From NCBI GenBank assembly GCA_964613215.1, contig CAZTHK010000026.1, forward strand, positions 1 to 47,934: 47,934 nucleotides of DNA, read 5' to 3'. The position numbers were made by a program, and so were the translations under genes. The DNA comes from an uncultured bacterium. Lineage in GTDB: Bacteria; Krumholzibacteriota; Krumholzibacteriia; Krumholzibacteriales; CAZTHK01. The notes below the pieces were generated by a model. The model did not search any database. It was not told the DNA's origin and worked only from the letters and a program-made list of their open reading frames with translations. Within the stretch, counting starts at the first letter, position 1, and every line of letters begins with the position of its first letter. Positions 2,140 through 31,445 of the stretch are shown here, in pieces.

Positions 2140-4245
2140 ATGAATATTATCAAAGTTCCCGCTGCAGTTATCCTGTTAATTATAATCACATGCTGTCCTG
2201 TAGCCTCAGGAGCAGGTGAGGAGAGCCATCAGACACTTTCACCGGAGGATGTCTTTAATCTTAAAATCTGCTATCAGGCGGAGATAGGACCCCGGGGCAA
2301 ACTGGTTGCTTACACGGCAAACCGCCAGCGGGAGGCCACCGGTGAGCCGGGCGGATCGTACAGTGAACTTTATCTGGTAACAGTGGAAGACTCGGAGATT
2401 AAACCTTTTGTAACCGGCAAGGTCAATGTCAGCTCACCAAGATTCAGCCCGGATGGATCCAGGATAGCCTTCCTGTCCCGGAGAGAGGGTGATAAGAACA
2501 CCCAGGTGTGGGTAATCCCGGTGGATGGAGGGGAGGCGGTAAAGGTAACCGATTCTCCCACCTCGGTTAAGACATTCCGCTGGCATCCCGGGGGAAACAT
2601 GATTGCATATGTTGCTACCACCGAAGAGAGTGAGAGGGAGAAGGAACTGGAGGAGAAGGGATATGATTTCATCTACTTCGAGGAAAAACTGAAACACCGC
2701 AACATCTATATGAGAGAACTGGATGAATACGGAGGGGTGGGAGAAAGGGTCAGGATAACCGAGGGAGTTACGGTATGGGACTTCCAGTTCGCACACCACG
2801 GCAGAACCATGGCAGCCGCCATCTCGCCCAAGAACCTGGTGGACCATTACTATATGTTCAAGAAACTCTATCTGGTAGATCTGGACAAAAAGGAAATCAC
2901 CAGGCTGACCGATAATGAGGGCAAACTGGGCAACTTCGCATTCAGCCCGGATGATTCCAGAATTGTATTCGCAGCCGCCAGGGAGAGGAAGGATCACCAT
3001 GTCAGCCAGGCATTCGTCATAGACGTGGATGGTGATAACCTCCGGAACCTCACCCCTCCTGATTTTCGCGGCCATGTCCTGTGGGTGGGATGGAAAGACA
3101 ACGACGAGATCGTGTATCGATCAGCAGAGGAGGTATGGTCAACCCTCAGCACCGTTGACGCGGAGGGTGGGGAAAGGGAAGTAATACTGCACTCCGGGGA
3201 AAATGGAGTAATCTTCAGAAATCCCAGCTATACGGATGACTTCGATCATTTCGCCTTCTCCGGCAATACTCCGGACACCCCCGGGGATGTATACTACTGG
3301 GAGGAGGGATGGGACCGGCCCAGGAAGCTGGTAACACTTAATCCCTGGATCTCCCGGCGGAAGCTGGGGCGGCAGAGGGTGATTACATACACCGCCAGGG
3401 ACGGCCTGGAGCTTAAGGGGATGCTGGTCTATCCGGCAGGATATGAAGAGAACAAGCTCTATCCCCTGGTTGTTTCGGTTCACGGGGGTCCCGAGTCCAA
3501 CTACTATAACGGCTGGTTGACCCGTTACTTCAATCCCGCCCAGGTACTGGCAGGGAAGGGATACTTTGTATTTTATCCCAACTACCGGACCAGCAATGGA
3601 TATGGAGTGGATATTGCCCTTCAGGGGTACCACGATGCTGCAGGGAAGGAATTCGATGATATAGCCGACGGCATCGATTATCTCAAGTCTCAGAAGCTGA
3701 TCGATCCCGGGAGAGTGGGACTGGGAGGGGGCTCATACGGTGGTTATGCCTCAGCCTGGTTCGCCTCCTACTATACCGATTATGTCAAGGGGGTATGCAT
3801 GTTCGTGGGGATCAGTGATCTGATCAGCAAGCGCGGTACCACCGACATCCCATACGAGGAACTGTACGTTCACTCCAGGGACAAGCTGGAGGAGATGTGG
3901 GATTTCAGCCTGAAACGCAGCCCCATCTACTATGCCCATCAGAGCAAAACAGCGGTGTTGATACTGGGAGGTACCCGGGATACCAGGGTCAACCCCGCAC
4001 AGAGCCTGGAGTTTTACCGGCGGCTGAAGATGAACAATCACCCCGCTGTAAGGATGGTGCGGTATCCCGGAGAGGGTCACGGAAACAGAAAACAGCCCGG
4101 CAGGATAGATATCCTCTACAGAACCCTGGAATGGTACAACTGGTATGTGAGGGATGGTAACCCCATCGCCGGCCCGAAACCGCCTCTGGATATCAGCGAA
4201 CATTATGGGCTGGATCTCGTAGATAAGAAAGAGGGTGAACAGTAA
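2140..4245 (+). CDS. Secreted S9 family serine peptidase (prolyl oligopeptidase / acylaminoacyl-peptidase type) with N-terminal beta-propeller
   Basis: Signal peptide, TolB/WD40-like propeller repeats (SPRFSPDGSRIAF), catalytic GGSYGGY (GxSxG) and alpha/beta-hydrolase C-terminus. AAGGAG RBS. Confidence 0.85.
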   Translation: MNIIKVPAAVILLIIITCCPVASGAGEESHQTLSPEDVFNLKICYQAEIGPRGKLVAYTANRQREATGEPGGSYSELYLVTVEDSEIKPFVTGKVNVSSPRFSPDGSRIAFLSRREGDKNTQVWVIPVDGGEAVKVTDSPTSVKTFRWHPGGNMIAYVATTEESEREKELEEKGYDFIYFEEKLKHRNIYMRELDEYGGVGERVRITEGVTVWDFQFAHHGRTMAAAISPKNLVDHYYMFKKLYLVDLDKKEITRLTDNEGKLGNFAFSPDDSRIVFAAARERKDHHVSQAFVIDVDGDNLRNLTPPDFRGHVLWVGWKDNDEIVYRSAEEVWSTLSTVDAEGGEREVILHSGENGVIFRNPSYTDDFDHFAFSGNTPDTPGDVYYWEEGWDRPRKLVTLNPWISRRKLGRQRVITYTARDGLELKGMLVYPAGYEENKLYPLVVSVHGGPESNYYNGWLTRYFNPAQVLAGKGYFVFYPNYRTSNGYGVDIALQGYHDAAGKEFDDIADGIDYLKSQKLIDPGRVGLGGGSYGGYASAWFASYYTDYVKGVCMFVGISDLISKRGTTDIPYEELYVHSRDKLEEMWDFSLKRSPIYYAHQSKTAVLILGGTRDTRVNPAQSLEFYRRLKMNNHPAVRMVRYPGEGHGNRKQPGRIDILYRTLEWYNWYVRDGNPIAGPKPPLDISEHYGLDLVDKKEGEQ

Positions 4246-6537: not shown

Positions 6538-8025
6538 CTACTCCCCGGCTACTGGTATGAGCACTTCCACAGTGGTACCCTTTCCCACCCGGCTGTCTAT
6601 CTTCAATCCACCACCGTGCTCTTTAATTATTCCATAGGCAATGGAAAGCCCCAGTCCGGCCGCCTCACCGCAACTTCTGGTAGTAAAGAACGGTTCGAAA
6701 GCCCGTTCAGCCACCTCATCACTCATCCCTTCACCGGTATCACTCAATATCACCCGGCAATAATCTCCCGAAGGGATGTCCATATGATCGCCGGTATCAA
6801 GCCCGGTGAGAGACAGATAGTCCATATTTACGGCAAGTCTGCCTCCTTCCTCCATGGCATCCCTGGCATTCACACATATATTGATCAGAGCCCTCTCCAA
6901 CTGTCCCTTGTTTATCAACACCGGTCTGTCCTCTTCCGGCCGGGATACTTCTATATCGATATTCCGGGGGAAGGTTCTTTCCAGCAGCAGAACCACATTT
7001 CGGATCACTTCTTTCATTGATCCTTTGCGTACTCTGGAGGGCATGCTGCTGCCAAGGGACAGGAGTCTCTTAGTATAATCTCCCGCCTGTTCCAGAGCCC
7101 GGTCTACTTCCTGGAGATCGGAATAGGCAGGATCATTTTCATGACAGGATTGCAGAGCCATGGTTACATATCCGGATATTCCCATGATTATGTTATTGAA
7201 ATCATGGGCGATATTGGCAGCCAGCCCCAGCATTGCATCGGCCCGCTGTGATCTGAGCAGAACCTTCTCCATTCTCCTCTGCTGGGTAACCATTCTGACT
7301 ATTCCGCACAGTCTGGTTGTATTCCCCTCCTCATCAATCAGGGGAAATTTCAGAATGTTGAAAATATCGTGATTTCTACCCAGCGGTACGGTGTCGAAGG
7401 ATCTGACCGGATGACCCTCCAGAATCCTTTCATCCATTTGAGCCAATGGTTCAGCAATCCTCCGGGGGAACACATCAAACACCGTCTTGCCGATAAGCTC
7501 CTCCCTGGATCTATCACACAGATTTGCAAAAGCGTCGGTAAGCCAGGTGTATCTGCCCTCTGTGTCCTTGACGTAGATTATCTCACCGGTATTTATCAGC
7601 ATCGCCTTCAGAAAGTGGGCCTTCTCAGCGGGGTTGGTATCCAGTTCATCCCAGTCGGAAAGATCGAACATAAAGGCAACATGTCCGGAAAATCCCTCTT
7701 CCCCGTTATGGAGAGGCTGGGAGGTAACCCTTACCGGATATTCTATCCCCCCCTCCCGTTCGAAATAGACTGGAGCATCATACTTTACTCCCTCGAAGAA
7801 TCCTCTCCCGGCAGGTTTCTTTTCTCCTTCTTTGGAGACTGTGAAGAAGGGATAGGGCGGTTCTGCTCCCACTACATCCTTCTTTTCACATCCAACCATC
7901 CGGCAGAAAGCATGATTTGCCTCCACTATTACACCATGCTCATCCACCACACTCATTCCAATGGAAGCATCCCTGAAGATAGAACCATAGATGTAATTAA
8001 TCGAATTTGTTCCTGCTTCAGACAA
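6538..8025 (-). CDS. Cytoplasmic PAS-domain sensor histidine kinase
   Basis: Two PAS-like regions, HisKA H-box (IAHDFNNIIMGISGY), HATPase_c G-boxes (DTGEGM ... GLGLSI). No TM segments. Confidence 0.85.
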   Translation of the reverse strand: MSEAGTNSINYIYGSIFRDASIGMSVVDEHGVIVEANHAFCRMVGCEKKDVVGAEPPYPFFTVSKEGEKKPAGRGFFEGVKYDAPVYFEREGGIEYPVRVTSQPLHNGEEGFSGHVAFMFDLSDWDELDTNPAEKAHFLKAMLINTGEIIYVKDTEGRYTWLTDAFANLCDRSREELIGKTVFDVFPRRIAEPLAQMDERILEGHPVRSFDTVPLGRNHDIFNILKFPLIDEEGNTTRLCGIVRMVTQQRRMEKVLLRSQRADAMLGLAANIAHDFNNIIMGISGYVTMALQSCHENDPAYSDLQEVDRALEQAGDYTKRLLSLGSSMPSRVRKGSMKEVIRNVVLLLERTFPRNIDIEVSRPEEDRPVLINKGQLERALINICVNARDAMEEGGRLAVNMDYLSLTGLDTGDHMDIPSGDYCRVILSDTGEGMSDEVAERAFEPFFTTRSCGEAAGLGLSIAYGIIKEHGGGLKIDSRVGKGTTVEVLIPVAGE

Positions 8026-8238: not shown

Positions 8239-8595
8239 TCAATGGTTGAATTTCTCCAAACCTGCAAACCGGTTATAGCGGTCCACCTTTATCAGCAGTG
8301 GTTCCACCGGATCGGAAACCCAGGAAAAGGACATCACATCAATCTCATCACCTTCCCTGATCAGATGGGCCGCAGCACCGTTCATGGCCATGACTCCACT
8401 CCCCCGCTCCCCTTTGATCACATATGTTTCCAGCCTGGCTCCATTGGTGCGATCCACCACCATGACATTCTCATTTTCACTGAGATTGGCCCTGTCCATA
8501 AGATCTTCATCTATGGTTATACTTCCCACGTACTGGACATCCGCCATAGTCACATTCGCTCTCAGTATCATCGATTTTAAAGCCAGGTACTTCAT
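8239..8595 (-). CDS. panD: Aspartate 1-decarboxylase (PanD) paralog with non-canonical K9M/H11L substitutions
   Basis: Gap-free alignment by eye to M. tuberculosis and E. coli PanD: YVGS (Gly24-Ser25 self-processing site), NGAR (Arg54), TY (Thr57-Tyr58) and MNGAAAH (Asn72) are conserved. Lys9 and His11 are replaced (LKSMILRANVT). Confidence 0.8.
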   Translation of the reverse strand: MKYLALKSMILRANVTMADVQYVGSITIDEDLMDRANLSENENVMVVDRTNGARLETYVIKGERGSGVMAMNGAAAHLIREGDEIDVMSFSWVSDPVEPLLIKVDRYNRFAGLEKFNH

Positions 8596-8725
8596 CGATC
8601 TCCGCCCGGTTATATAATTCTACTTTGATCAGCCTTCAGCATCAATATAACAGCAAACCGGTATCCGGTCAAAGTATATCATTGCCAACAAGTTGGGTTA
8701 ATGGCTCTTCTGAAAATCCAGAAAC

Positions 8726-10447
8726 CTATATTTTATCCCCCGCCCTATCGGTGAGGTAACGGACAAAACGGTTGTCTTCATCCACCAGAATATTATTAAA
8801 TTTTCCGCCTGTAGTTCCCGCCCAGGTAAATGCCATGACACTGACTTCGTCTCCCCGATGAATATGCCTGCCGGCCGCTCCGGCCACCACAATCTCCCCG
8901 CTTCCCTCTTCACCTTCCCTTACCGTGGTCTCCACCCGGGCACCGTTGGTATTGTCCACAATCAGCACCTTCTCGCCCGGGTTAAGATTACCACACCGCA
9001 TCAGCTCGAGGTCAACGGTGAGGGAATCAAACCCCTCCGGATCCACTCCGGTAATGGTTGCCTTGTGAATCTTTGTCTTGATAAGAAGTCTTTCCTGCAT
9101 ATCTGATTTGACTAATCTATAATTACCCGGGGAGTCCTGCGGAATATCATCTACCCTGGCAAAACTGACCCTGAAGTCCTCTCCACAATTTCTTGTTATC
9201 CTGGTTTCTATCAATTCCGAATACTCATCCCTCCATTCATCATCCGTTACCAGTTTTAATATTATACCATTGCTGTCCCGCTGTTCAATCTGAAAATTTT
9301 CTACCCCCGGGATACCGTTGAGGAGACGGGGCCACAGAAAAGAACCTATCTTCCCGCCATCCGGTGTTACCACCCTGTCCAGGGAAGGGCCCTGTATGCT
9401 GTGAAGCAGGGGGAAACCTCTTCCGCAGGAACAGGTTCGTCCGGCGGGTATTGCAAAGTCTCCGGTGCGGTACCGGATAAAGGGCATATAACGGTTGGTC
9501 AGGTCGGTAACTACCAACTCTCCCGCCTCGCCACTACCCGCCGGTCTCCCGTTTTGATGAATTACCTCCACCAGGAATAGGTCGCTGAACAGGTGAAGAC
9601 CTTCATGCTCCTCACATTCCTGGGCCAGATAGGAGAATTCCCTGCAGCCATACCTTTCGTAGGCAGGACATCCAAAGACCCCCTCAATAATATTCCTCTG
9701 ACCGGGATACAGCTTTTCCCCACCGGTGATCACTGATCGGGGATTGCCCACTTCCAGTGAATTTATCCTGATGAAATCAGCAAACATTTCCAGTGCAGAG
9801 GGATAACCAGAAATGTACCCGGGCTTAAGCCTTTTCAAGGCGGAAGCATACTTGCTCATGGAATGTTCAGACATATCCAGCGCAGAGAATGCAAATATGT
9901 TATTCAGATAATTTTTCAGCCACCTGCTGATACGCTCTCCTCCCGGTTCATCCGGAGGCAGCCCCCACAACTTGAACTCTCTATCCCCCAGATCCATACC
10001 AGCCCATCTATCCGCTCTCAGCATGCTGGCCCGCTTCAGGGGGGAGGCACTACTATCATAGTAAAAACGCAATGGTTTCCCGGTGGTTCCGGCAGTCCTG
10101 GAGGGATGACCCCTCCTGAAGGGATCGGTGGAAATCATACTGTTTCCATACCTCCGGATCCTCTCCCTGGTTAAAAACGGAATCTCAGCTAAATCAGAAT
10201 AGCTGTTGATATTCTTCACCCGGATTCCATGTTCCCTGAACAGTTTCCGGTAGTAGGGGACATGCCTGGTCGCTTCTTTCAGCAGCTTCTCCAGCTTTCG
10301 CCATTTTATTTCTTCCAGCCGGGAAGGCTCCAGCCACTGATTGCGCTCCAGAGTGTCCAGATAGCCGAGCAGCTGGTCATTTCTTAATCCCCGGTAAAGG
10401 GGATAGATAACATTTCTTACCAGGGAAGGGTGCAGCGGAGGTAGCAT
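8726..10447 (-). CDS. PaaK/CapK-family adenylate-forming ligase fused to a C-terminal PanD-like (aspartate decarboxylase fold) domain
   Basis: N-terminal ~450 aa carry the phenylacetate-CoA ligase / F390-synthetase family P-loop TAGTTGKP. C-terminal ~120 aa (KIHKATITGVDPEGFDSLTVD ... NGARVETTVREGEEGSGE ... AGAAGRH) align gap-free with PanD, at roughly 50% identity to the neighbouring stand-alone PanD. Single uninterrupted ORF. Confidence 0.75.
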   Translation of the reverse strand: MLPPLHPSLVRNVIYPLYRGLRNDQLLGYLDTLERNQWLEPSRLEEIKWRKLEKLLKEATRHVPYYRKLFREHGIRVKNINSYSDLAEIPFLTRERIRRYGNSMISTDPFRRGHPSRTAGTTGKPLRFYYDSSASPLKRASMLRADRWAGMDLGDREFKLWGLPPDEPGGERISRWLKNYLNNIFAFSALDMSEHSMSKYASALKRLKPGYISGYPSALEMFADFIRINSLEVGNPRSVITGGEKLYPGQRNIIEGVFGCPAYERYGCREFSYLAQECEEHEGLHLFSDLFLVEVIHQNGRPAGSGEAGELVVTDLTNRYMPFIRYRTGDFAIPAGRTCSCGRGFPLLHSIQGPSLDRVVTPDGGKIGSFLWPRLLNGIPGVENFQIEQRDSNGIILKLVTDDEWRDEYSELIETRITRNCGEDFRVSFARVDDIPQDSPGNYRLVKSDMQERLLIKTKIHKATITGVDPEGFDSLTVDLELMRCGNLNPGEKVLIVDNTNGARVETTVREGEEGSGEIVVAGAAGRHIHRGDEVSVMAFTWAGTTGGKFNNILVDEDNRFVRYLTDRAGDKI

Positions 10448-10659: not shown

Positions 10660-11772
10660 TTATGTGGTCCGAGGGCCTCGCTCACACAATCCCACCACAA
10701 AATCGTGCGATATTTCACCCCTGGACAGCATCTCATCTTCCCGGTCAAAACATCGCTTCAACAGCCTCCCGGTTTCATCACTTCCATCCCTGAAATTATG
10801 GGCAATATCGGCAAACAGCAGCTGAAGAATACTTCCGCCATATCCCCTGAATTCCACCGGCTTGAATAACTCCTGTATCAGGGGAAGAATATCAGAAGAT
10901 CTTACCGCTTCGGTACGGTCATACAGAATCATACTCAGCCGGCCCCGCCGGTGAACCTTCTTCTTGACAGTACCACTCCTCCACCGCCTCCTGTACCGGA
11001 CTGGCAATGTGGACAGCAGATCATTCACCATCTCCAGCTGTTTCCCGGTCCACTGGAACCGGGAAGGGCCCACATACTCATTGAATACGAATTTACCTTC
11101 CGGCTTCAGGGAATTATTTATAAACGCAAATATCTCCTCCAGATGCGAAAAATGATGGAGGGCCTGTTCGGCCAGTATGAAATCGTAACACTCACTCCTG
11201 GCTTCTATTCTGTTGACATCACTTATGGTAAAATCAACTATGTCATCCACTCCCTTACGGGCAGCCCACTCCCGGGCATGCTTTATCCGGGCTGCAGAAA
11301 AATCTATTCCCTCCACCTGTGAGAATATCCCACTCTCTGCCAACTCTACCTCTCTGTGGCCGGTGCCGCAACCGAGAGTAAGAGCCTTGAGCGATCTTTC
11401 CCCCTTTAGATATTTATCGAAGAAATAGCTCAGATATCCCTTGCCGGGATCTCCGGATATCATCCGGCTCCATCTCTGCATAACCTCCGGTATGTCCCAC
11501 CAGTGTTTGAGAGGATAGTTATATTCTTCCCAATGCGTACCTCCTCCCCTTCTCGGCCCCAGAAACACCTTGGAAAGGATTCTACTCAGATCCCCCTGCC
11601 TGATCTTCTCCATCAGAAAACTTAAATCATGGATATTCAAAAGATTGCCGAGCAAGGGACCATCCCCCTCATTTTCCCGGACAAACCGGTATGAGACCGG
11701 GATATCATTCTTCTCCATTTCACTCCGGCTGGAAACATCATCAGCCTGGTGCGTTTTAATGTTGCTATCCAT
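10660..11772 (-). CDS. Class I SAM-dependent methyltransferase with C-terminal extension
   Basis: Motif I LTLGCGTGHREVELAES, then acidic motif II and motif III (Methyltransf_11/25-like). About 100 extra C-terminal residues. 212-bp gap to the downstream ligase gene. Confidence 0.75.
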   Translation of the reverse strand: MDSNIKTHQADDVSSRSEMEKNDIPVSYRFVRENEGDGPLLGNLLNIHDLSFLMEKIRQGDLSRILSKVFLGPRRGGGTHWEEYNYPLKHWWDIPEVMQRWSRMISGDPGKGYLSYFFDKYLKGERSLKALTLGCGTGHREVELAESGIFSQVEGIDFSAARIKHAREWAARKGVDDIVDFTISDVNRIEARSECYDFILAEQALHHFSHLEEIFAFINNSLKPEGKFVFNEYVGPSRFQWTGKQLEMVNDLLSTLPVRYRRRWRSGTVKKKVHRRGRLSMILYDRTEAVRSSDILPLIQELFKPVEFRGYGGSILQLLFADIAHNFRDGSDETGRLLKRCFDREDEMLSRGEISHDFVVGLCERGPRTT

Positions 11773-13251: not shown

Positions 13252-14400
13252 ATGTCTCAATTTATGGAAGTACTGGAATGGTTTGATGAAACAGGAGAAG
13301 AAATCGTTCACAGGATACCGCCGGAGGGATCGGCGGAAATAAAGATGGGAGCCCAGCTGGTGGTCCGGGACAACCAGAGCGCGGTCTTTTTCAAGGACGG
13401 CAGGGGACTGGATGTATTTGGATCGGGACGGCATACCCTTACCACCAGAAACCTTCCCATGCTTACCAAGGCTCTCTCCCTGCCCTGGGGATTCAAGAGC
13501 CCCTTCAGGGCGGAAGCATACTTCGTTAATATGAAAACATTCCTCAATCAGAAATGGGGAACCAAGGATCCGGTGGCCTTCAAGGACAGCAAACTGGGTC
13601 TGGTAAGACTCCGTGCATTCGGAGTATATACCTTCAAGATAGTCCAGCCGGTGCTGTTTATCAATTCGGTGGTGGGTACCCAGGGGGTCTACCGCAGTGA
13701 AATGATCGACAACTATCTCAGGGATGTTATCGTAGCCAGGATAAATGACCTGTTCGGAGAACAGCTGGATACCATATTCGATCTTCCCCGGTACTATGAT
13801 GAACTGGCGGTGGACATCAAGAACAGACTGGACAGCAATTTCTCCAAGTATGGAATGGAACTGATAGATTTCTTTATCAACTCCATCACCCCTCCCCCGG
13901 AGGTTCAGAAGATGATAGATGAACGCAGCGGTCTTCAGGCGGTGGGAAATCTGGACAGCTTCTTCAAGTTCAAGGCGGCCAAAGCGATGGGAGATGCCGC
14001 TTCCGGTACTGGCGGGGGAGCCGCCGGCGGGGCGGCTGCAGGGGGAATGGGTGTAGGAGTAGGAGCCGGCCTGGGAATGATGATACCGGGTATGCTGGCC
14101 AGGAATGTTCAGGGAAACTCCTCATCCACCGGAACGGCTGATATGCTCCAGTGCCACCGGTGTCACAACGAAGTATCCGCCGATTCCAGATTCTGTCCCA
14201 GATGCGGAGCACAGCTGGTAATCATGAACAGATGCCCGGAGTGCCAGACAGAATTGCCGGCGGAGGCGAAGTTCTGCTCCAGCTGCGGAAAGCATCTTAC
14301 CGATTCCACCATCTGTCCCCACTGCGGCGCCAAGCTTCCTCCGGGAACAAAATTCTGTACCGACTGCGGAGAGAAGACAGAGGGGAAAGATGAAAGTTAG
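13252..14400 (+). CDS. SPFH/band-7 family protein (YdjI / virion-core-protein type) with Gly-rich linker and three C-terminal zinc-ribbon motifs
   Basis: N-terminal Band_7_1-like domain, GGGAAGGAAAGG linker, [19 protein letters not shown] / [19 protein letters not shown] / [27 protein letters not shown]. Confidence 0.8.
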
Positions 14401-15085
14401 ATGCAACCTTTGCGGAGCTCCCAACACAATTCACCCCGGACAGAAGATGCTGTTCTGCGAATTCTGTGGTTCCGCCGTCGCAATTTCTGATCTCCGAGGT
14501 CCTGAGCATCTTATCCTGCCGCATCAGAGGAACGATCAGATGGCCCGGGAGATGTTAATATCTCATCTTAAATCCAGACGCCGGAAACCGCCCTCCCGGA
14601 TCGAGGCAGATTTCTCTTACCTGCCCTTTTACATGGAGGAGGGAGATGGAACGATCAATCCCCTGGCGGCTGCCAATCCGGGGATGGAAATAATCCCCCC
14701 TTATCCCCCTGCCGGAGATTACAGATTCTTTGAACCTTCCATGGCGGATGAGCAGGAAATCCTGCCCGCCCAAGGGAACAAACCTGAGGCAAGATACCTG
14801 CTTCATCTACCCGTCTATACCCTGAAATATTCAGTTTCCGGGGTAGAACAAACAGCGACGGTAGTGGGTGAAAGCTGGCAGGTGCTGATGGACGAGCTGC
14901 CCCCCCGGAAGGATTTATCGGTAAACAGGATAAACTTTCTGGCAGCAGCTGCGCTTTTCATCCTGTTTCTGTTTGCGGGAAAAATCTCACCAAACATTAC
15001 CGGCCGTACCGCTATCATTGGAACAGCTTCACTAACCGTATTCCTCCTTTATAAAATGCGGGAAAGGCTGGTGAAGAAGGTATGA
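14390..15085 (+). CDS. Zinc-ribbon membrane protein, paralog 1 of 3
   Basis: CNLCGA ... CEFCGS zinc ribbon, SYLPFYMEE motif, C-terminal TM helix. 11-nt overlap with the upstream gene. Confidence 0.55.
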
Positions 15086-16293
15086 GCGCCCCCGGCAAAA
15101 ATCAGCACAATCCCGGAGCAGGAAACCCTCCAGCCGTACAGCAGAGTGGCATGCCGGGGATGGAGGGACCACCGGCCACTTATTCCGGCAGCCATACCGG
15201 CGAAAAAATTATGAATTCATCACCACATTCCCGGGTCAGCCAGTCCGGGAGGCCAGGTTACGGAGAAACAGATTCTGGGGTCCCGGATGAAGAAGACCGG
15301 GGAAAACCGTCAGGGCGGGAAGCCGGGGAAAGTTTTGGTATATCCTGTCCTCTCTGTGGAGGTTCCCTGAGGGCTCATCAGGGTGAGAAGAGTATCACCT
15401 GCGGCTACTGCGATTCCTCCCTCTACATCCAGAATCCCCCCGGAGTTAAAAGCTTTATGACCGAACCGGCGATCTCCCCGGGAAGAGCGAAACTCAACAC
15501 TCTTCACTATCTCCGGGACAACACCTCCGGGCGGGTGAAGGCCCGGCACACCTCCATCATGGAGGTACAGCTGCTTCACGTTCCCTTCTGGAGGATCACA
15601 GGAAGACTGGTAGGGTGGGTATGCGGAGACAGAGTCAAGATGATAGAAAGAGAAATTCCCACCTCCAACCCTCACTCCGCCAGTACCATCAAGAAGGTTA
15701 CCGAGGAGAGGAAACCGTATTCCAGGCTGGTTCATAAAAATATCCACTGGAGTACTCCTGCCTGTACCCTGCCCTACCTGGGCCTTCAGGGAATCTCCAT
15801 GAAGACAAAATTCCTGGAATGGGAGATCTTCTCTCACCGGTTCAAAAAGAATCATACCTTCGCCCTTCCCATGAAGAGTGCCTCCCACGCCATTTCCAGA
15901 GCCTCCAGATACTTTTCTCATCTGGCCACCCCACCAAAAGCCACCGTGCATGCCAGAAGATTCCATCTGTTCAACAGCGAGATGGCCCTTTACTACTATC
16001 CGGTTTACTTCATCCGTTACCGGCACGGCAGGAGGGTCTACTCAGTTACCCTGGATGGCCGGGATGGATATGTTATCCGGGGTGATTACCCGGTCAGAAA
16101 GAGTATTAACTCCAGAAACATATTCTTCCTCCCGGCACTGGCGGCATGGATGGCCTGCACCTGGTTCCCCCTGATAATAATTTCGCTGGTTTCCCTGTAC
16201 ATATATGACCTGATCCGGGGAGAGGGATCACCCCTGCCCCATAACTGGTTAATGGGATGGTTGAGAGGATGGTTGGGGGGTGAATGGAAATGA
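15082..16293 (+). CDS. Zinc-ribbon membrane protein, paralog 2 of 3
   Basis: CPLCGG ... CGYCDS ribbon, LHVPFWRITG motif, C-terminal TM helices. ATGA overlap with the upstream gene. The N-terminal 80 aa are low-complexity and Pro/Gly-rich. Confidence 0.55.
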   Translation: MSAPGKNQHNPGAGNPPAVQQSGMPGMEGPPATYSGSHTGEKIMNSSPHSRVSQSGRPGYGETDSGVPDEEDRGKPSGREAGESFGISCPLCGGSLRAHQGEKSITCGYCDSSLYIQNPPGVKSFMTEPAISPGRAKLNTLHYLRDNTSGRVKARHTSIMEVQLLHVPFWRITGRLVGWVCGDRVKMIEREIPTSNPHSASTIKKVTEERKPYSRLVHKNIHWSTPACTLPYLGLQGISMKTKFLEWEIFSHRFKKNHTFALPMKSASHAISRASRYFSHLATPPKATVHARRFHLFNSEMALYYYPVYFIRYRHGRRVYSVTLDGRDGYVIRGDYPVRKSINSRNIFFLPALAAWMACTWFPLIIISLVSLYIYDLIRGEGSPLPHNWLMGWLRGWLGGEWK

Positions 16294-17132
16294 ATGAGGG
16301 TTTTGTAATAAAACCGTTGATCTGCGACTACTGCGGTTCTCAACTGCCGGTTATGGATGAACTGGCAATCTTCAGGTGCCCGGTCTGCTATCAGCAGTGG
16401 CTTCTGAGCGGGGAGGAATTAAAACCAATCCGGACCTGCCGGGTACCGGAGGATACCGGAAATAAAAACAGCCTGCTTTATCTCCCCTTCTGGGTGATCG
16501 AGATCGACAGGGATGACCTGGCGAAAAAGATAAAAGAGTGTACCTCTGCAAACCAACAGATCAAACGGACCATTGCCTCCACAGAGCTTTCCGGGGATGG
16601 CCTGGATACGGACGGCATTACCGGTCTTCCCGGTCAGACAAGCCCGGCGGCGGAGAGGGTGAAATTTATCAGCAATGCCGCCGGTGCGGTCAGGACTCCC
16701 CATCCCCATCAGATCAGGAAGATAATTAATAATATAGCTTCCCGGGAGAGCTTCAATATCTACGTGCCAGCCTTCCATTCCAGAAACACCTACACCTACA
16801 TCAAGGTGGGCAGGCTGATGACCAGCCGGCAGCCTTACTACCAGGTAACCGGCGCTTTTCCCCCCACCAGCCGTACCCTCTGTGTTCTTCAGCCTGAGGA
16901 ATCAATCCCCCTGCTCGATTTCATCTTCATATCCACACTCCCGGAGGAGGTTCAGGCGTGCGGGGATTTTATCAGCGGGATAAAGGTTAAACCAACCTCT
17001 CCCCCCAGACTGGTGGAATTCCCCTATCTGGAGAAGGGCGCCTATCTGAAGAGTATAATCGGCAATTTCCAGATATCCAACCGGCTGGTAGAAAACCGGC
17101 CTGCAACTGCTGGATCCGGACCCGGATTATAA
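16284..17132 (+). CDS. Zinc-ribbon protein, paralog 3 of 3
   Basis: CDYCGS ... CPVCYQ ribbon, LYLPFWVIE motif. 10-nt overlap with the upstream gene. Confidence 0.55.
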   Translation: MEMNEGFVIKPLICDYCGSQLPVMDELAIFRCPVCYQQWLLSGEELKPIRTCRVPEDTGNKNSLLYLPFWVIEIDRDDLAKKIKECTSANQQIKRTIASTELSGDGLDTDGITGLPGQTSPAAERVKFISNAAGAVRTPHPHQIRKIINNIASRESFNIYVPAFHSRNTYTYIKVGRLMTSRQPYYQVTGAFPPTSRTLCVLQPEESIPLLDFIFISTLPEEVQACGDFISGIKVKPTSPPRLVEFPYLEKGAYLKSIIGNFQISNRLVENRPATAGSGPGL

Positions 17133-19729: not shown

Positions 19730-20408
19730 CCACAACTCCGATTGGAATATCCAGGGGGGAATACAGCTGGAAGTGTAAGCCAAACAACCAGACTGCATTC
19801 CATAATAAGGAAAAAGTAACATCGGGCATTCAAACCGGGATTCCACTCTTATTTAATTAACCTAAATCCGTCAAGATGATCCTCCCCTGACCAGAGATAC
19901 AGGGCGTAGATCCGGCGGCGTACATGCACCATGCTGCAGTTCATCCCACCACAGCCGGTGGTAAAAGTGGAAAACCATGCATCCCCGCTTCCGTGATTCA
20001 AGATTCCAGGCATAATTAGAGCGGTGGCTTCACTGACACCCTCTTGTTTTCATCGGAAAACAGCTTATTTCTCCGAAAAAATCGCTCTGATGGCAGAATA
20101 AGCCGGGTGTATCCATTTGGAGCTATTTGCCGGAGGGGGGGAACTTTTTTCGCCCCCTCCCCGCCAGAAGATAAATCATCTCACTTCCCCACAGCCCCTT
20201 ATATCTCCAAGTTATTCTCTTGAAATAAATTAACAGAGATATATCTGTGCACCTGCAACTCCTGTGGTGGCAACCATCTTGCTCAACCGGACATGAAACC
20301 GGATATCAACTTATAATAATTGGTCCGTCATCGATGGTGTCCGGCCGGCGAGCAAATATCCACCGGTACAGCCGGAACACCCGGACCACAAGGAGACCGA
20401 AAGGAACG

Positions 20409-21899
20409 ATGCCACCCCAACCGGAGAAGAAACATTCACTGAAAAAACAGACCGCCTTCCTGTTTGCCGGCAAACTGGTAGCGGTAGTCCTCAGGTTTAT
20501 GGTCCCCCTGCTCCTGGTAAGGATGATGTCCCGGCAGGAGTTCGGTCTTTACAAGCAGGCCCTGCTGTTGTGCTTCTTTTTTGTTCCCATACTGCAGTTC
20601 GGGATAACCGACAGCATTCTCTACTTCTACCCCGATAATGAAAAGAAGAAGGAACTGATCTCCCAGACAGTATATCTGTTTCTGCTTATCGGAATGGCAT
20701 TCCTTGCCGCCTTTTACCTCTTCCACCAGAAGCTGCTGCTTCTGTTCAGGGGAGCGGGGCTGGAGGGAGTGGTACAACCGGCAAGCATATTCATATTCTT
20801 CTACTTCATCACCATGTTCTTCGAAAAGGTCCTGATACTGGAGAAGAAGAACAGGGAACTGTTTGCCTATGTGATAGCGGACAGATTTACCTATGTGGCC
20901 TTTATACTCCTGGCAGCCCTGATTTACGGAACTGTTGAAAAAATTCTCTGGTCCCTGGCCCTCTACTCGTTGATCAAGTTCACGGTGGTGCTGTTCTACC
21001 TTAGAATCAAATACAGCTTCCCGGTAAGCATAAAAAAAATATCATGGAACCGGCTCAGGGAACAGCTGGTATTTTCAGTATTTCAGGGAGGCGGCAAGAT
21101 AGTGGGAGAGATAGGGAGAAAGATTGACAAGTTCTATCTTTCCTATTTTCTCAATCCGGCCAGCTTTGCCATCTACAGTGTGGGAAATTTCAGCGTGCCG
21201 GTGATAAACATCATGTGCACCTCGGTAGCCACCACGGCACTGCCCCGGATAAGCCTGCACTATAAAAACAGGAGATACCGGGAAGCGAAAGAGCTGTGGC
21301 ACAGGATAATCACCTACTACAGCCTGGTGACCATCCCCCTGGTAGCCTACTGCTGGGTGATGTCGGAAGAGATAATAACCTTCCTGTTCACCGAAAAGTA
21401 CGCCGACAGTGCAGCCATATTCCAGCTGCTGCTGCTGGTATACCTGACCAAGACATTGAGCCGCGGCACAATAGTAAGAGCTAGCAATAACACCAGATAC
21501 GCATTTCAAGGGAATGTGCTGTCGCTGCTGTGGGGTGTGGCCGCAGGATATTTTCTGATCAGATGGCGGGGTACCGCAGGAGCAGCCCTCTCTGTTGTTA
21601 TATCGCATTACATAAATGCGATATATCAGGTTTACAAATCAAAGGGAATACTGGAGCTGTCCTGGCGGGAATGGCTTCCCTGGAAACAGATGGGTGCCAT
21701 AATGATAATCTCTGTTTCAATGCTGGCGGTTATTCCTTTATTCAAGGGAACCATTTCAACACCGGTTTTACTTATCACAGCCAGCGGACTGGTCTATTCC
21801 GCCCTGGTGCTGGCGGGATATCATTTCGCCGGCTTTGTAAATGTAAGCACTCTCAATGGCAAGCTGAAAGAGAGTTTCGTATTCAACAAACAGTTGTGA
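20409..21899 (+). CDS. Wzx-like polysaccharide/oligosaccharide flippase (MOP superfamily)
   Basis: About 12-14 predicted TM helices and a polysaccharide-biosynthesis-protein signature. The start is taken at the ATG at 20409 with AAAGGA RBS. The upstream 54 codons of the ORF are non-membrane and lack an RBS. Confidence 0.75.
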   Translation: MPPQPEKKHSLKKQTAFLFAGKLVAVVLRFMVPLLLVRMMSRQEFGLYKQALLLCFFFVPILQFGITDSILYFYPDNEKKKELISQTVYLFLLIGMAFLAAFYLFHQKLLLLFRGAGLEGVVQPASIFIFFYFITMFFEKVLILEKKNRELFAYVIADRFTYVAFILLAALIYGTVEKILWSLALYSLIKFTVVLFYLRIKYSFPVSIKKISWNRLREQLVFSVFQGGGKIVGEIGRKIDKFYLSYFLNPASFAIYSVGNFSVPVINIMCTSVATTALPRISLHYKNRRYREAKELWHRIITYYSLVTIPLVAYCWVMSEEIITFLFTEKYADSAAIFQLLLLVYLTKTLSRGTIVRASNNTRYAFQGNVLSLLWGVAAGYFLIRWRGTAGAALSVVISHYINAIYQVYKSKGILELSWREWLPWKQMGAIMIISVSMLAVIPLFKGTISTPVLLITASGLVYSALVLAGYHFAGFVNVSTLNGKLKESFVFNKQL

Positions 21900-21907
21900 G
21901 GGAAAAA

Positions 21908-22777
21908 GTGATCTATCTGGTTCTTGGCATGCATAAATCGGGTACCACCCTGGTATCGCAGATACTGCACAATTCGGGTATCAATATGGGGGATTTCGAC
22001 CAGGAGATATCCTACGACAGGGGGAATACCCTGGAAAGGTTCGAATTCCTGATATATAACACAGCCATAATGAATATCCGCATCCTGGATGCGGGCGTGA
22101 AACAGTACCGCAGGGTAACCACTTTGGAGGGGTTTACCCTCCCCCGCCTGATAAGAAATGTACTGACCCGGGCGGTAGAGAGGCTGGACCGGAAATTCCC
22201 GGAGTGGGGATGCAAGGACCCCCGTATGTGCCTGACCTACCAGGTCTGGAGGGAGATCCTCCCCCTCCACAGGATCATATCGGTAGTGCGCGACCCATTC
22301 GAGGTGGCTGACCGGTACTGCAAGTATGTCAACCGCTTCAGGATACTGAAGAGGCTGGTAACCCGTCTCAGGGTGATCAGTTCATGGTACCTTCACAACA
22401 GTGCTATCCTGGAAATCGTCCGGGACAATGGTCCTGACTGTACGGTGGTGGACTACAACAGGCTGATGAGTGAAGAAGGGGATAAGGAATTCAGAAAGAT
22501 GGAAAAACTTTGCGGCAGGAAACTGACGGATACCAGGGACAGATCCCTCTACCGGAACAGGAAGGGAGACCACACCAGCCTGCTGGACAGGATAATAGAG
22601 ATCTGTTTCAAATATGTACTCAACCGGGACCTCTGCGGCTTGAGGGAGAAATTACTGGATAGCTCATCCCGCATATCAGGCGATGGTGACACCTCCACCG
22701 GAACAGCAAACGAACCTGGAGGGAAGGAAGAAAAACACGGAGGAGTGAAGCTACCGGAACATACCACCGTGGAATAA
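21908..22777 (+). CDS. Sulfotransferase family protein (PAPS-dependent)
   Basis: 5-prime PSB motif VIYLVLGMHKSGTTL. The 5-prime part of ORF 21530 overlaps the flippase and is discarded. GTG start at 21908 (GAGGG RBS), 8 nt after the flippase stop. The alternative start is the ATG at 21929. Confidence 0.7.
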   Translation: MIYLVLGMHKSGTTLVSQILHNSGINMGDFDQEISYDRGNTLERFEFLIYNTAIMNIRILDAGVKQYRRVTTLEGFTLPRLIRNVLTRAVERLDRKFPEWGCKDPRMCLTYQVWREILPLHRIISVVRDPFEVADRYCKYVNRFRILKRLVTRLRVISSWYLHNSAILEIVRDNGPDCTVVDYNRLMSEEGDKEFRKMEKLCGRKLTDTRDRSLYRNRKGDHTSLLDRIIEICFKYVLNRDLCGLREKLLDSSSRISGDGDTSTGTANEPGGKEEKHGGVKLPEHTTVE

Positions 22778-22802
22778 TAATTCTATAGATGGGAATCAAA
22801 GC

Positions 22803-24404
22803 ATGAAATCCACATTCACATATGAAGAAAAAGACTGCAAACAGCAGATTCACGGGAACCGCCCTTCGCCAGTGCATCTGTGGCAATATCCGGCATACCG
22901 GGACCCCCGGGGGGTGTGGCATTCTGAATTCTCCGGAGCGATTAAGAGCAGTAAGGGCCGGATGAGATGGAATCCGGGGGGGATACTCTCATCCATCGCC
23001 TTCAGCTATCCCTGCGGTGACATCACCCTGGTGGAGGGGATCCGAAGGAGTCCCTGGCTATCCGGGATAGACCAGGAGGACGAGGTTGAACTGTCCTCCA
23101 TACCCCCACATGGAAGAACCTGGATGAAACCCCGGGACATTGCCGCCAGGCTGCTGGAACTGCTGGAAGAGGAAGCCCGGGCAGCCTGCCGTTCTCATTC
23201 CGAGATATACATACTCCTATCCGGAGGCCTGGACAGCAGGATCGTGGCAGGTGTTGTGAGCAGGTTAAAGAGGGAGGGGAAGATAGAGGGAGATCTCTAT
23301 GCGGCCACCTGGGGACTGGAAGACTCCAGGGATGTGGTATATGCCCGGGAAATTGCCGGCATGCTGGGACTGGAATGGTGCCATATTCCCATAGGGCCGG
23401 AAACCATTATGGACAACATAGATTTATCCGCCTCCACCGGCAATATGCTTCCCCCCTCCGACCTTCACTGCCTCTCCTGGTTTTCCAGGGTGCCACCCGG
23501 TTCCCTGGTTCTGGCGGGCAGCTACGGGGATTCCATAGGCCGGGGGGAGTACAGCGGACAGCACATTCTGGAGCTGGAACCGCTCATGCCCCGGAACCTG
23601 CTGGAGCTTCTCAAGCCGCCTCCCTTCAACCGGGGAGCGGAAATAATACAGGGGGAGCTGGACAACCTGATGGAGAGATGTGAGGATAAAACCCCGTATG
23701 TGCTGTATGAGCATCAGCAGCAGGGCCACTATATGCGGAGCATGATTGCCCAGGCCATCAGCGTTTTGCTTCCCCGTTGTGACGTCTACCAGATGTTCAC
23801 TGCTCCCCCGGTATATTCATTCATGTGGTCGATCCACCCCTCCATAAGAGACAACCGGACCTATGCTCATCTGCTGGAGCTTATCCACCCCCACCTGGCA
23901 CGGCTCCCCTGGGCCAGGACCAACCGGGCGCTGAGGGGTAGGACAGAGAGAGCCAGAAGAGATGTGAGAAAGCAATTTCACTGCTATGCCGAATGGATAA
24001 GCGGGCCATTGTACCACCGGATCAAAGAGATAGTGGATCCGGGCTGGTTTGAACAGACCGGTATATTCCGGGGCCACAGCATAGAGAAACTTACCCGCAG
24101 CCTGAAACCGGATCAGCAGAGCCTGATGGGAGAAAGTTTCAAACCTTACCGCCTGTGGCTATGGCTGGCCGGCATTCGTAAATTCCATCAGTGGTGCGGG
24201 GAGTATGGTGTAAACCTGGAGTATGATCCCGATTCGCCGGAGAACCGCCATCTTCCCCCCTATCACCCTCCCCGGGATAACAGAACGTCATTAAGGAAAT
24301 TCATCGCCCGGTGGAGAACTGCCAGAACGATCAAGAGAAAGCTCAAGCGGATCATCCTGAAATGGAGAGCAATCAGGGATTATCCTCCTGAACCGGGCAG
24401 ATAG
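22803..24404 (+). CDS. Asparagine synthetase B-like ATP-pyrophosphatase lacking the N-terminal glutaminase domain
   Basis: PP-loop ILLSGGLDS about 140 aa from the N-terminus and an AsnB synthetase-domain C-terminus. No MCGI Ntn nucleophile. Confidence 0.7.
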   Translation: MKSTFTYEEKDCKQQIHGNRPSPVHLWQYPAYRDPRGVWHSEFSGAIKSSKGRMRWNPGGILSSIAFSYPCGDITLVEGIRRSPWLSGIDQEDEVELSSIPPHGRTWMKPRDIAARLLELLEEEARAACRSHSEIYILLSGGLDSRIVAGVVSRLKREGKIEGDLYAATWGLEDSRDVVYAREIAGMLGLEWCHIPIGPETIMDNIDLSASTGNMLPPSDLHCLSWFSRVPPGSLVLAGSYGDSIGRGEYSGQHILELEPLMPRNLLELLKPPPFNRGAEIIQGELDNLMERCEDKTPYVLYEHQQQGHYMRSMIAQAISVLLPRCDVYQMFTAPPVYSFMWSIHPSIRDNRTYAHLLELIHPHLARLPWARTNRALRGRTERARRDVRKQFHCYAEWISGPLYHRIKEIVDPGWFEQTGIFRGHSIEKLTRSLKPDQQSLMGESFKPYRLWLWLAGIRKFHQWCGEYGVNLEYDPDSPENRHLPPYHPPRDNRTSLRKFIARWRTARTIKRKLKRIILKWRAIRDYPPEPGR

Positions 24405-24465
24405 CGGAAAATGTACCTGTGGATGATAAAACAAAAGTCCCACCCGGGGGAAAAAACTAAAGTCA

Positions 24466-24486
24466 CAGTTTCAGTCTCCGAAACTG
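24466..24486. promoter_or_regulatory. Inverted repeat CAGTTTCAG-N-GAAACTG between the asnB-like and asnB genes; a third copy of the GTTTCAG ... GAAAC motif
   Basis: 7-bp stem and 7-nt loop in the 171-bp spacer upstream of asnB. Confidence 0.35.
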
Positions 24487-24575
24487 AGGAAAACGAACCT
24501 GAAAGATAAAAGGGAACCCGGATAATCCAGAACCATATGAGGAGTTGCGGGTTCCGGTCGAAAAGGGAAACAGAT

Positions 24576-26576: not shown

Positions 26577-27316
26577 GAGTTATAATTCTTGCCGCCGGCC
26601 AGGGCAAACGCCTCTATCCCCTGACCAAGAACTGCCCCAAGAGCCTTCTGGAGATAGGAGGAGGGAGAAGTGTACTGGAGAGCCAGCTGAAGTGTGTAAG
26701 GGAAACAGGCCTGAAGGATGTCACCATAGTCACCGGCTACAAGACCGAACAGATAGAGGCCAAGATCAAGGATATCGAGGATATAGACATCTCCATATGC
26801 TATAACCCCTTCTTTGCTACCAGCAATAACCTGATCTCCGCCTGGCTGGCAGTGAGGGAGACCGGAGAAAACTTCGTGCTGGTAAACGGGGATGATGTGT
26901 TCAAGCCTCATGTGCTGCAGGGGCTGCTTGATTCCGGCCACCCCATAACCATGGTGATAGACAGAAAGGAAAGCTACGATACCGACGACATGAAGGTGGT
27001 AACCAGGGATGATCACATCATCAAGGTCAGCAAGGAGATTCCCCCGGAAGAGGCCAATGGCGAATCCATAGGTATGATGCTGTTCAGGGGCAAGGGCAGA
27101 TCCATTATAGGGGAGACCCTTGAATCCATGGTAAGGGATGAAGAGAGCAAACAGATATTCTATCTGGCCGCTCTGCAGAAGATAATGGATATGGGATATC
27201 CGGTGAGATATTTCGAGTGTGCACCGGAGGACTGGGCGGAGATAGATTTTCACTCCGACCTCTCCTTCATCCGGGAACACATCAACAGGTATGCCGCCGA
27301 CATTGTCAAGATATGA
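26573..27316 (+). CDS. Sugar-phosphate / phospho-alcohol nucleotidyltransferase (LicC / MobA-like NTP_transferase family, probably a cytidylyltransferase)
   Basis: MRVIILAAGQGKRLYPLT nucleotide-binding start. ATGA overlaps at both ends. Confidence 0.8.
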   Translation: MRVIILAAGQGKRLYPLTKNCPKSLLEIGGGRSVLESQLKCVRETGLKDVTIVTGYKTEQIEAKIKDIEDIDISICYNPFFATSNNLISAWLAVRETGENFVLVNGDDVFKPHVLQGLLDSGHPITMVIDRKESYDTDDMKVVTRDDHIIKVSKEIPPEEANGESIGMMLFRGKGRSIIGETLESMVRDEESKQIFYLAALQKIMDMGYPVRYFECAPEDWAEIDFHSDLSFIREHINRYAADIVKI

Positions 27317-28089
27317 GGGCTGATATGGAATCCACAGCTGAACTGAAAAGGATCTGCAGGAGGGAAAACTACCGGGATAACCTCAAGACCATGTTCTTTG
27401 CAGCCAGGGTGTCCATCTATTTTACCCGGCTGCTTCTGATGCTGAATCTTACCGCCAACCAGGTGACCGTGATGTTCATATTCGCCGGGATAGCTTCAGC
27501 CATCTCTTTTCTGGGTCAGGGGCTGTGGTGGTTCGCCGCCGGTTATCTGCTGCAACGTATGCATGTAATACTGGATGTTTGCGACGGGGAGGTTGCCCGT
27601 TACCGCCAGACCTTCAGCCCGGTTGGGGGTTATCTGGACTTTCTCACCCACTACTTCGTCTATGCCCTTATCCTGTTCTTCATCTCCCTGAGGCTGTATC
27701 TGGACACCGGATGGTTCCCCGCCCTGATAGCGGGATTCGTTCTGGTTATCTCAAATACCATGATTCGGGCCGCCACCGACTGCTGGTTCAGAGCCAACTT
27801 CAATAGCAGCGGGCGGGATGAGATAGAGGAGGGAAGAAATCAAGAGAAAAGAAGCTCTCTCCCCGGCTGGCTGAAGAAGGTTATACTTCTGGCCGCCCAT
27901 ACCACCAGCATCCAGACATTTTTGAACGCTTATCTGATAGCAGTGATAATGGCGGAATATTCTGAACTGGATATCAGGATGTATATCCTGACCGGATATG
28001 CCGTTATTCTATTCCTGTTTTCCATAGTAAGGATAGCTTTTACAATAAAGAGAGGTAAAATCCCGAGGAGAGCGACCTATTACAAGTGA
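27313..28089 (+). CDS. CDP-alcohol phosphatidyltransferase family protein
   Basis: DVCDGEVARYRQTFSPVGGYLD matches D-x2-DG-x2-AR ... G-x3-D. Multiple TM helices. ATGA overlap with the upstream nucleotidyltransferase. Confidence 0.75.
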   Translation: MRADMESTAELKRICRRENYRDNLKTMFFAARVSIYFTRLLLMLNLTANQVTVMFIFAGIASAISFLGQGLWWFAAGYLLQRMHVILDVCDGEVARYRQTFSPVGGYLDFLTHYFVYALILFFISLRLYLDTGWFPALIAGFVLVISNTMIRAATDCWFRANFNSSGRDEIEEGRNQEKRSSLPGWLKKVILLAAHTTSIQTFLNAYLIAVIMAEYSELDIRMYILTGYAVILFLFSIVRIAFTIKRGKIPRRATYYK

Positions 28090-28229
28090 ACAGATCAAAA
28101 CCGGAGGAGAAGCAGCCAGCCCGCCGTACTTCCACTGAATAAGAACTCTCTCCGGCAGCGGAAAAGCAACTGCAGAAAACAATAAATGAGGGAAGCCGTA
28201 CTTATGATTATAAACAGGAATTCCGGATA

Positions 28230-30560: not shown

Positions 30561-30576
30561 GGAAAGGCCGGGCTCG

Positions 30577-31404: not shown

Positions 31405-31445
31405 TCCTTCCAGCCAATAATTTTACGGTAACCGGTTACCGTAAA

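Follow-up and report, generated by a model that had tools for sequence, protein, structure and literature searches.

Introduction

Aspartate 1-decarboxylase (ADC), the product of panD, is a textbook homotetrameric enzyme that processes itself, and it is a drug target (pyrazinamide). Here we analyze two adjacent genes that probably encode one such enzyme between them, one of the two being fused to an adenylate-forming ligase. The genes lie in a stretch of 47,934 nucleotides from an uncultured bacterium of the Krumholzibacteriota (contig CAZTHK010000026.1, positions 1 to 47,934, assembly GCA_964613215.1), which is called the window throughout. The first gene (8726..10447, minus strand; open reading frame (ORF), Pfam and NCBIfam) encodes a 573-aa protein consisting of a CapK/PaaK-type ligase and a C-terminal ADC-like domain, the putative pseudo-subunit ADC'. 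The second (8239..8595, minus strand; ORF, Pfam, TIGR00223 and PDB alignment) encodes a stand-alone ADC-like protein of 118 aa, PanD*, the predicted pyruvoyl-forming catalytic subunit. Positions 9 to 86 of all ADC-like sequences are given in E. coli PanD numbering.

The nearest described system is PanD itself (E. coli, M. tuberculosis, H. pylori; PF02261, TIGR00223), which has the same fold and numbering, and whose Gly24-Ser25, Thr57, Tyr58 and Asn72 are kept by PanD*. The canonical active site lies between subunits of the tetramer. Lys9* and Arg54* are contributed by the neighbor, while Pyr25, Thr57 and Tyr58 are on the subunit that bears the pyruvoyl group; Lys9 of the adjacent subunit pairs with the alpha-carboxylate of the substrate, and both Lys9 and His11 are strictly conserved in ADCs (PMC3314653). 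The origin of Arg54* in the neighboring subunit has also been reported elsewhere (PMC6969166), and in the structure of ADC T57V a malonate forms a bridge from Lys9 to Arg54. In the canonical homotetramer each subunit carries the residues acting in cis as well as those acting in trans, whereas in the present pair each of the two sets is found on a different paralogue.

The requirement of a second protein for a functional ADC is known from the activation of E. coli PanD by PanZ/PanM. However, PanZ has an unrelated GNAT fold, acts by promoting processing and has its binding site away from the active site, while the helper proposed here is a paralogue of ADC that would donate active-site residues. 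Closer in working principle, with no membership claimed, are two trypanosomatid systems, S-adenosylmethionine decarboxylase (AdoMetDC) with its prozyme and the deoxyhypusine synthase pair DHSc/DHSp. In both, a dead paralogue and an impaired catalytic paralogue form an active hetero-oligomer, and AdoMetDC is a pyruvoyl enzyme. Unlike the pair in the window, these systems are eukaryotic, differ in fold and lack a fusion to a downstream enzyme. No description of a heteromeric or pseudo-subunit ADC was found in the open literature, and searches on K9A/H11A mutants, beta-alanine-amidated polysaccharides and the pantothenate metabolism of Krumholzibacteriota gave nothing relevant. A paper on an "atypical ADC" of D. 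vulgaris was set aside, the enzyme there being of the unrelated pyridoxal phosphate type.

Division of ADC active-site residues between two genes

The two ORFs, separated by a spacer of 130 nt (8596..8725), were found where a first-pass annotation of the window had placed them. A check with hidden Markov models bore out its description of the longer one as a fusion, with Pfam Asp_decarbox matching residues 453–560 (E 7e-23), a weak AMP-binding match, and matches of the ligase part to PaaK-family models under their cut-offs; Foldseek on a structure model also gave PaaK-family folds. The ligase occupies residues 1–450 (9098..10447, minus strand; phmmer against the PDB, Foldseek and motif alignment). 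ADC' occupies residues 451–573 (8729..9097, minus strand; alignment to M. tuberculosis PanD and family residue tables) and aligns without gaps to residues 3–92 of M. tuberculosis PanD (2c45), in line with the gap-free alignment to ADC claimed earlier. In the AlphaFold2 (AF2) model its predicted local distance difference test score (pLDDT) is mostly 83–91 over residues 461–540. The identity between the two ADC-like sequences, put earlier at about 50%, was measured at 44% over 108 aa with one gap.

The family models separate the two proteins. PanD* matches Pfam Asp_decarbox with an E of 3.2e-36 and passes the TIGR00223 panD equivalog (113.1 bits against a cut-off of 106), whereas ADC' matches PF02261 with an E of 6.9e-23 and stays under the same cut-off with 64.4 bits. 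The active-site residues in both proteins are those that had been listed from the first reading. ADC' carries K459 (K9; 9071–9073), H461 (H11; 9065–9067) and R504 (R54; 8936–8938), together with D474-S475 at positions 24–25 (9023–9028), T507 (T57), T508 at 58 and A522 at 72. Thus the trans residues Lys9, His11 and Arg54 are present, and Gly24-Ser25, Tyr58 and Asn72 are not. PanD* has the Gly24-Ser25 processing site (8521–8526), Tyr22, Arg54, Thr57, the proton donor Tyr58 and Asn72, with M9 (8569–8571) and L11 (8563–8565) in place of Lys9 and His11, and D86. Judged by sequence, each protein falls short of a full PanD: PanD* is without Lys9 and His11, and ADC' is without the processing site, Tyr58 and Asn72.

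The same division was found across the family. A sample of 47 ADC' domains and 39 adjacent PanD* proteins from species-representative genomes was aligned to E. coli and M. tuberculosis PanD. Lys9 is present in 47/47 ADC' and never in PanD*, which has M (38) or A (1); His11 is likewise present in 47/47 ADC' and never in PanD*, where L, M, I or V is found. Position 22 is variable in ADC' and Y in 39/39 PanD*. At the processing site ADC' has D24 in 46/47, followed by C (37), G (6) or S (4) at position 25, and all 39 PanD* have G24 and S25. Arg54 is shared by both (46/46 and 39/39). Position 57 is T (39) or A (7) in ADC' and T in 39/39 PanD*, position 58 is F in 41 ADC' and Y in 39/39 PanD*, and position 72 is C, S, G or T in ADC' and N in 39/39 PanD*. 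At position 86, where the canonical residue is Ile, ADC' has I, S or G, and PanD* has D in 38/39. The window copy of ADC' is atypical for its family in having S25, T58 and A72.

Database homologues agree with this sample. The PanD* signature recurs in 120/120 of the best homologues, with M, V, I, T or A at position 9, L, M, I, V or F at position 11, Y22, G24, S25, R54, T57, Y58 and N72 in 100%, and D86; the ADC' signature recurs in 88 database proteins, in which K9, H11 and R54 are conserved at about 100%. At positions 9, 11, 22, 24, 25, 54, 57, 58, 72 and 86, canonical PanDs read K-H-Y-G-S-R-T-Y-N-I with few exceptions, and among 146 representative homologues nearly all keep Lys9 and His11. 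Since PanD* retains all the cis and self-processing residues and ADC' retains the trans residues, the split follows the functional partition of the enzyme. The serine at position 25 of the fused copy had suggested a second candidate pyruvoyl site. This suggestion is not upheld, because Ser25 is confined to the lineage of the window and to a second clade described below, and the position is Cys or Gly in most homologues, which argues for ADC' being a non-processing pseudo-subunit.

Gene linkage and occurrence

PanD* lies directly 3' of the fused gene in 39 of the 43 loci that extend beyond the fused gene; four more loci (L002, L020, L035 and L038), whose contigs end within or just past it, are outside this count. 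The spacer is 14–182 nt in 35 of the 39, and the genes overlap in the second clade. Likewise, three of three independently chosen PanD*-type proteins on long contigs have the fused gene immediately upstream, and no ADC-like sequence was found within 10 kb of unfused ligases of 430–470 aa (0/32 loci). In the window a GGAG Shine-Dalgarno sequence (8600–8603) stands four nt ahead of the PanD* ATG. Sigma-70-like matches lie in the 130-nt spacer, but the promoter scan gave no more sites than shuffled sequence would (9 sites vs 5.8 +/- 2.6), and no terminator-like site was found between the two genes.

The pair is not always joined to a ligase. On JGI contig Ga0452210_079874 (locus L081, 2549–3254) a free-standing D24-type gene of 134 aa overlaps the start of a PanD* of A9/L11 type, and a Wzy_C/TPR membrane protein follows. 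The free-standing protein has K9, H11, D24, S25, R54, T57 and F58. The pairing therefore does not require that the D24-type partner be joined to the ligase. L037 and L088–L091 form a second clade of ligase-ADC' fusions; the last four came from a metagenome search that started from the free-standing L081 protein. Its ADC' is less diverged (K-H-x-D-S-R-T-x-N-I, with S25, N72 and I86 kept), and its partners have A9, I, V, L or F at position 11, and T86. With other replacement residues in this clade, the same reciprocal loss recurs.

An alternative to be weighed here is that the fusion is an artefact, a frameshift or misassembly having joined two genes, or that the paralogues are redundant and differ in these residues through random drift. 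This is vanishingly improbable. The architecture of about 573 aa is represented by over 100 independent clusters at 90% identity (mostly 571–581 aa; NCBI, JGI, ENA and Logan assemblies), and the fused gene is found in 48 species-representative genomes, which rules out a frameshift or misassembly; against drift, the active-site substitutions are invariant across the fused genes and their partners. The genomes are mostly metagenome-assembled genomes (MAGs) labelled Krumholzibacteriota or mislabelled relatives (Eisenbacteria, Latescibacterota, "UBP1"). At 50% identity the fused family has about three representatives and is therefore one compact family. Novelty of the architecture had been suspected at first reading. 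As far as our searches showed, the fusion has not been described in the open literature, yet it is widespread in MAGs of Krumholzibacteriota type and is annotated there automatically: more than 100 homologue clusters have the precomputed Pfam architecture PF27533 CapK_C plus PF02261, and pipelines name the genes "aspartate 1-decarboxylase" or "phenylacetate-CoA ligase".

A search of the representative library with ADC' found the D24-type domain in no further domain architecture, the longer matches having canonical signatures. One stand-alone D24-type variant, P0391, was rejected, its contig being too short and its downstream ORF not ADC-like. Degenerate stand-alone ADC-like proteins were also seen in the library of 1.84 billion proteins, namely P0370 (MHYGSRTYND), P0441 (RNGDLRATSS), P0490 (KQQGCRTYND) and P0498 (ERRDSRTHNS), and these may be further split or pseudo-ADC systems.

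A probable hetero-oligomeric decarboxylase

We consider it probable that the two genes encode one hetero-oligomeric aspartate decarboxylase with a split active site, the non-catalytic half of which is fused to the ligase. In such an enzyme PanD* would cleave itself at Gly24-Ser25 to form the pyruvoyl group and would supply the cis residues Thr57, Tyr58 and Asn72-Ala75; without Lys9 and His11, it would need a neighboring subunit to insert both. ADC', with Asp24, usually Cys or Gly at position 25, Phe58 and no Asn72, would be unable to form a pyruvoyl group, and would donate Lys9, His11 and Arg54 in trans. A mixed tetramer of alternating subunits would then have two complete sites, each made of the PanD* pyruvoyl and the Lys9*, His11* and Arg54* of ADC'. 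The other two interfaces would be dead and largely hydrophobic, D24, C25 and F58 of ADC' lying opposite M9, L11, R54 and D86 of PanD*. The replacements at this predicted interface are indeed hydrophobic (K9M and H11L on PanD*; S25C, Y58F and N72C on ADC'), as is expected on both faces if a dead interface is retained for assembly alone. Crystallised E. coli PanD constructs (143-aa chains) tolerate an N-terminal tag of 17 residues, which supports an N-terminal extension such as the ligase.

A hetero-oligomeric ADC had already been suggested from the window. The complex is a prediction, and what now favors it is that the family-wide reciprocal losses match the known cis/trans split, that the genes are nearly always adjacent, and that an unfused two-gene version exists. 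Several observations pull the other way. The assignment of Lys9 to the trans set is the statement of a single paper (PMC3314653). The partition is imperfect, since PanD* retains Arg54 and ADC' mostly retains Thr57, neither of which is needed by a strict split; the invariant Asp24 of ADC' may sit in the carboxylate site of PanD* Arg54* at the dead interface, which would explain the retained arginine. Covariation between ADC' and PanD* (mutual information, 39 pairs) is dominated by phylogeny and uninformative. Finally, tblastn found no partner within 10 kb of the fused gene in L014, L015, L018 and L040; L015 belongs to the same MAG (JAGLYV01) as L010, where the pair is complete.

These four fused genes without a nearby partner would also suit a different arrangement, in which PanD* is an autonomous homotetramer, possibly with altered substrate or kinetics through M9, L11 and D86, and ADC' is a ligand-binding, regulatory or scaffold domain that does not complete the PanD* site. 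PanD* lies over the panD equivalog threshold with every cis catalytic and processing residue kept, and the carboxylate-binding K9 and R54 of ADC' could bind aspartate or beta-alanine by themselves. Nevertheless, we regard an autonomous PanD* as unlikely. Lys9 and His11 are strictly conserved in ADCs (PMC3314653) and present in nearly all of the 146 representative homologues, and their loss is essentially confined to proteins encoded beside a D24-type paralogue that retains them. Autonomy of PanD* also leaves unexplained why ADC' conserves precisely the trans-acting residues, and why an unfused pair exists in L081.

In some genomes a second fused gene without PanD* within 10 kb is present; a PS_pyruv_trans-family gene cluster (c17) comes after it in L014 and L015.

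If the two genes do form one enzyme, they would provide a clean bacterial case of pseudoenzyme complementation and a natural experiment on the cis and trans residues of ADC. The present names, plain "aspartate 1-decarboxylase" or "phenylacetate-CoA ligase", would mislead metabolic reconstruction.

The ligase and its glycan context

The ligase is an ANL enzyme of PaaK fold from the PaaK/CapK branch and is not a PaaK orthologue. Its best match in the PDB by phmmer is BT_0428 (4r1l, E 7e-29), followed by PaaK1/2 and AjiA1. The AF2 model of the 573-aa protein (pLDDT 84.4; predicted template modelling score, pTM, 0.70) has BT_0428, PaaK, ClxA and NatL2 as top Foldseek matches (E 9e-29, probability 1.0). 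PaaK, BT_0428, AjiA1, NatL2 and ClxA are its nearest solved structures by sequence and fold. The window copy has motif A3, the P-loop TAGTTGKP at residues 118–125 (10073–10096, minus strand), in agreement with the first reading, and motif A7, which reads RYRTGD at residues 325–330. Unlike PaaK, the ligase is far under the equivalog cut-offs (83 vs 646 for TIGR02155, 104 vs 700 for NF041878, and 153 vs 300 for the DVU_1553 family), its context is glycan synthesis instead of phenylacetate catabolism, and the window copy is without the A10 lysine.

In most loci the fused gene belongs to a cassette of a GT4 glycosyltransferase, a polysaccharide deacetylase, ligase-ADC' and PanD*. In L090 (316–4716) these four genes overlap stop to start, and in L037 the same genes occur in another order together with a FemAB-like acyltransferase. 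Unfused homologues of the ligase, found in many phyla, lie among Wzx flippases, Wzy_C proteins, GT4 enzymes, deacetylases, pyruvyl transferases and AsnB-like amidotransferases. A functional precedent is given by VpsH of V. cholerae, a PaaK-related, CapK-like protein that is genetically required for the amide-linked glycine on GulNAcA, a uronic acid in the lipid-linked disaccharide of Vibrio polysaccharide (VPS), according to a 2026 study (PMC13463779). VpsH and other CapK-like ligases share with the present one the PaaK-like fold and the CapK_C domain and, at the level of the family and its unfused relatives, a place in Wzx/Wzy-type glycan loci with GT4. VpsH, however, has no decarboxylase domain and its substrate is a common amino acid, whereas here the ligase carries a module predicted to generate beta-alanine.

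By analogy with VpsH, a role of the ligase and decarboxylase cassette in the synthesis of a beta-alanyl glycan can be put forward tentatively. L-Aspartate would be converted to beta-alanine only on the ligase, which would activate a carboxylate (by precedent, that of a uronic acid belonging to a glycan, either polymeric or lipid-linked) and couple beta-alanine to it, in cooperation with the GT4 glycosyltransferase and the polysaccharide deacetylase that normally precede the fused gene. Alternatively, beta-alanine could itself be adenylated and then transferred to a deacetylated amino sugar. This chemistry is less likely, since the analogy with VpsH and the gene context favor beta-alanine as the attacking amine over its being the adenylated acid.

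Taken to its full extent, the proposal is that of an obligate hetero-oligomeric ADC "prozyme" with its dead half carried by a CapK/VpsH-like ligase, so that beta-alanine arises nowhere but where it is used and ends up as a so far unrecognised beta-alanyl amide on the envelope or exopolysaccharide of Krumholzibacteriota and their relatives; the pair may even be their sole route to beta-alanine. We hold this to be a serious possibility that falls somewhat short of probable. If it is true, production of a scarce building block would be confined to the enzyme that uses it up, a substrate-supply module would be added to the CapK/VpsH class of glycan amino-acid ligases that is now emerging, and a function would be assigned to a conserved cassette of a candidate phylum known here from metagenome-assembled genomes alone.

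Divergence of the ligase in the window

Several findings count against the glycan role, above all in the lineage of the window itself. What connects the ligase to VpsH is the family name and the genomic setting, and the chemistry of VpsH is not biochemically defined. The A10 lysine is catalytic in ANL enzymes, and in the window ligase it is replaced by N442 (9122–9124), while the GR of motif A8 has become GP (P354, 9386–9388); at these two positions at least 90% of 69 homologues keep K and R. The nearest relative, P0002 (L082, 4472–6193; 65% identical), has AAGSAAGT at the P-loop as well as R354P. Of the 126 ligase columns with conservation of at least 90%, the window departs at 17 and P0002 at 21; the next sequences depart at 14, 12, 11 and 10, and the rest at no more than 7. 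The GT4 and deacetylase genes are absent beside the pair both in the window and in the P0002 locus.

The large number of departures suggests that the ligase of this sub-lineage is decaying or repurposed. Comparison of the window with P0002 gives identities of 62% for the ligase, 79% for ADC' and 85% for PanD*. By these sequence comparisons, the ligase function appears to be relaxed or changed in the sub-lineage while the decarboxylase pair is still constrained, and the pair may survive there mainly as a source of beta-alanine. The idea that the ADC module feeds beta-alanine to the attached adenylating domain, raised in the first-pass annotation, is thus proposed for the family, with beta-alanine as the amine; in the window it is doubtful, because the A10 lysine, the A8 arginine, GT4 and the deacetylase are all missing.

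The erosion of the ligase beside a better-kept ADC' and PanD* would also be in line with a heteromeric decarboxylase that is a housekeeping source of beta-alanine for pantothenate and coenzyme A (CoA), the fusion to the ligase being regulatory or incidental and not serving to channel beta-alanine to a glycan. In the same direction, no canonical KH-type PanD labelled Krumholzibacteriota was among the matches listed, although no genome-wide test for a canonical panD was made. However, panB, panC and coa genes were found near the pair in none of the loci examined, and two divergent clades both preserve the compact four-gene cassette that includes GT4 and the deacetylase. A housekeeping role as the general explanation is therefore quite unlikely in our view.

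Neighboring genes and other features of the window

Just upstream of the fused gene, as had been noted, lies a class-I S-adenosylmethionine (SAM) methyltransferase of 370 aa (10660..11772, minus strand; Pfam Methyltransf_31/11/25). Its best NCBIfam similarities are to UbiG, CpaM and BioC, all far under cut-off. Homologues (cluster c25) are found 5' of GT4 or deacetylase genes in L004, L007 (3135-), L012, L046 and L085/L086 (1–667). A role of the methyltransferase in methylating the carboxylate or the amine of the beta-alanyl group is purely speculative.

On the other side of the pair, a gene for an M50 site-2-protease-like protein with CBS domains follows PanD* after 22–42 nt in most loci (L083–L086, L004 and others), and because of this short gap it is probably co-transcribed with PanD*. 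In the window this gene is absent between 8026 and 8238, and a PAS histidine kinase (6538–8025) comes next; the relative L082 has both the M50/CBS gene and the histidine kinase.

A cluster of exopolysaccharide (EPS) type is located 10–30 kb from the pair (20247–39387, mostly on the plus strand). It includes a Wzx-like flippase (20247–21899, plus), two asparagine-synthase-like (AsnB-like) genes (22803–24404 and 24537–26576, plus), a GT4 gene (28230–29438, plus), patatin and PAP2 genes, and PMT_2-type glycosyltransferases (32464–34116, and 38062–39387 on the minus strand). A gene for a large hybrid histidine kinase that contains Reg_prop/Y_Y_Y domains (34348–37863) splits the cluster.

No tRNA genes were found in the window. 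Two paralogous genes of the S9 prolyl-oligopeptidase family with PD40 repeats are present at 2140–4245 (plus) and 39539–41653 (minus), the latter near AsnA (41821–42879) and a GATase_7 protein (43393–44880). Three ORFs in a row (231, 403 and 282 aa; 14390–17132, plus strand), 3' of an SPFH/zinc-ribbon gene, have no Pfam match, and their homologues (clusters c21, c8 and c11) are syntenic in many related MAGs.

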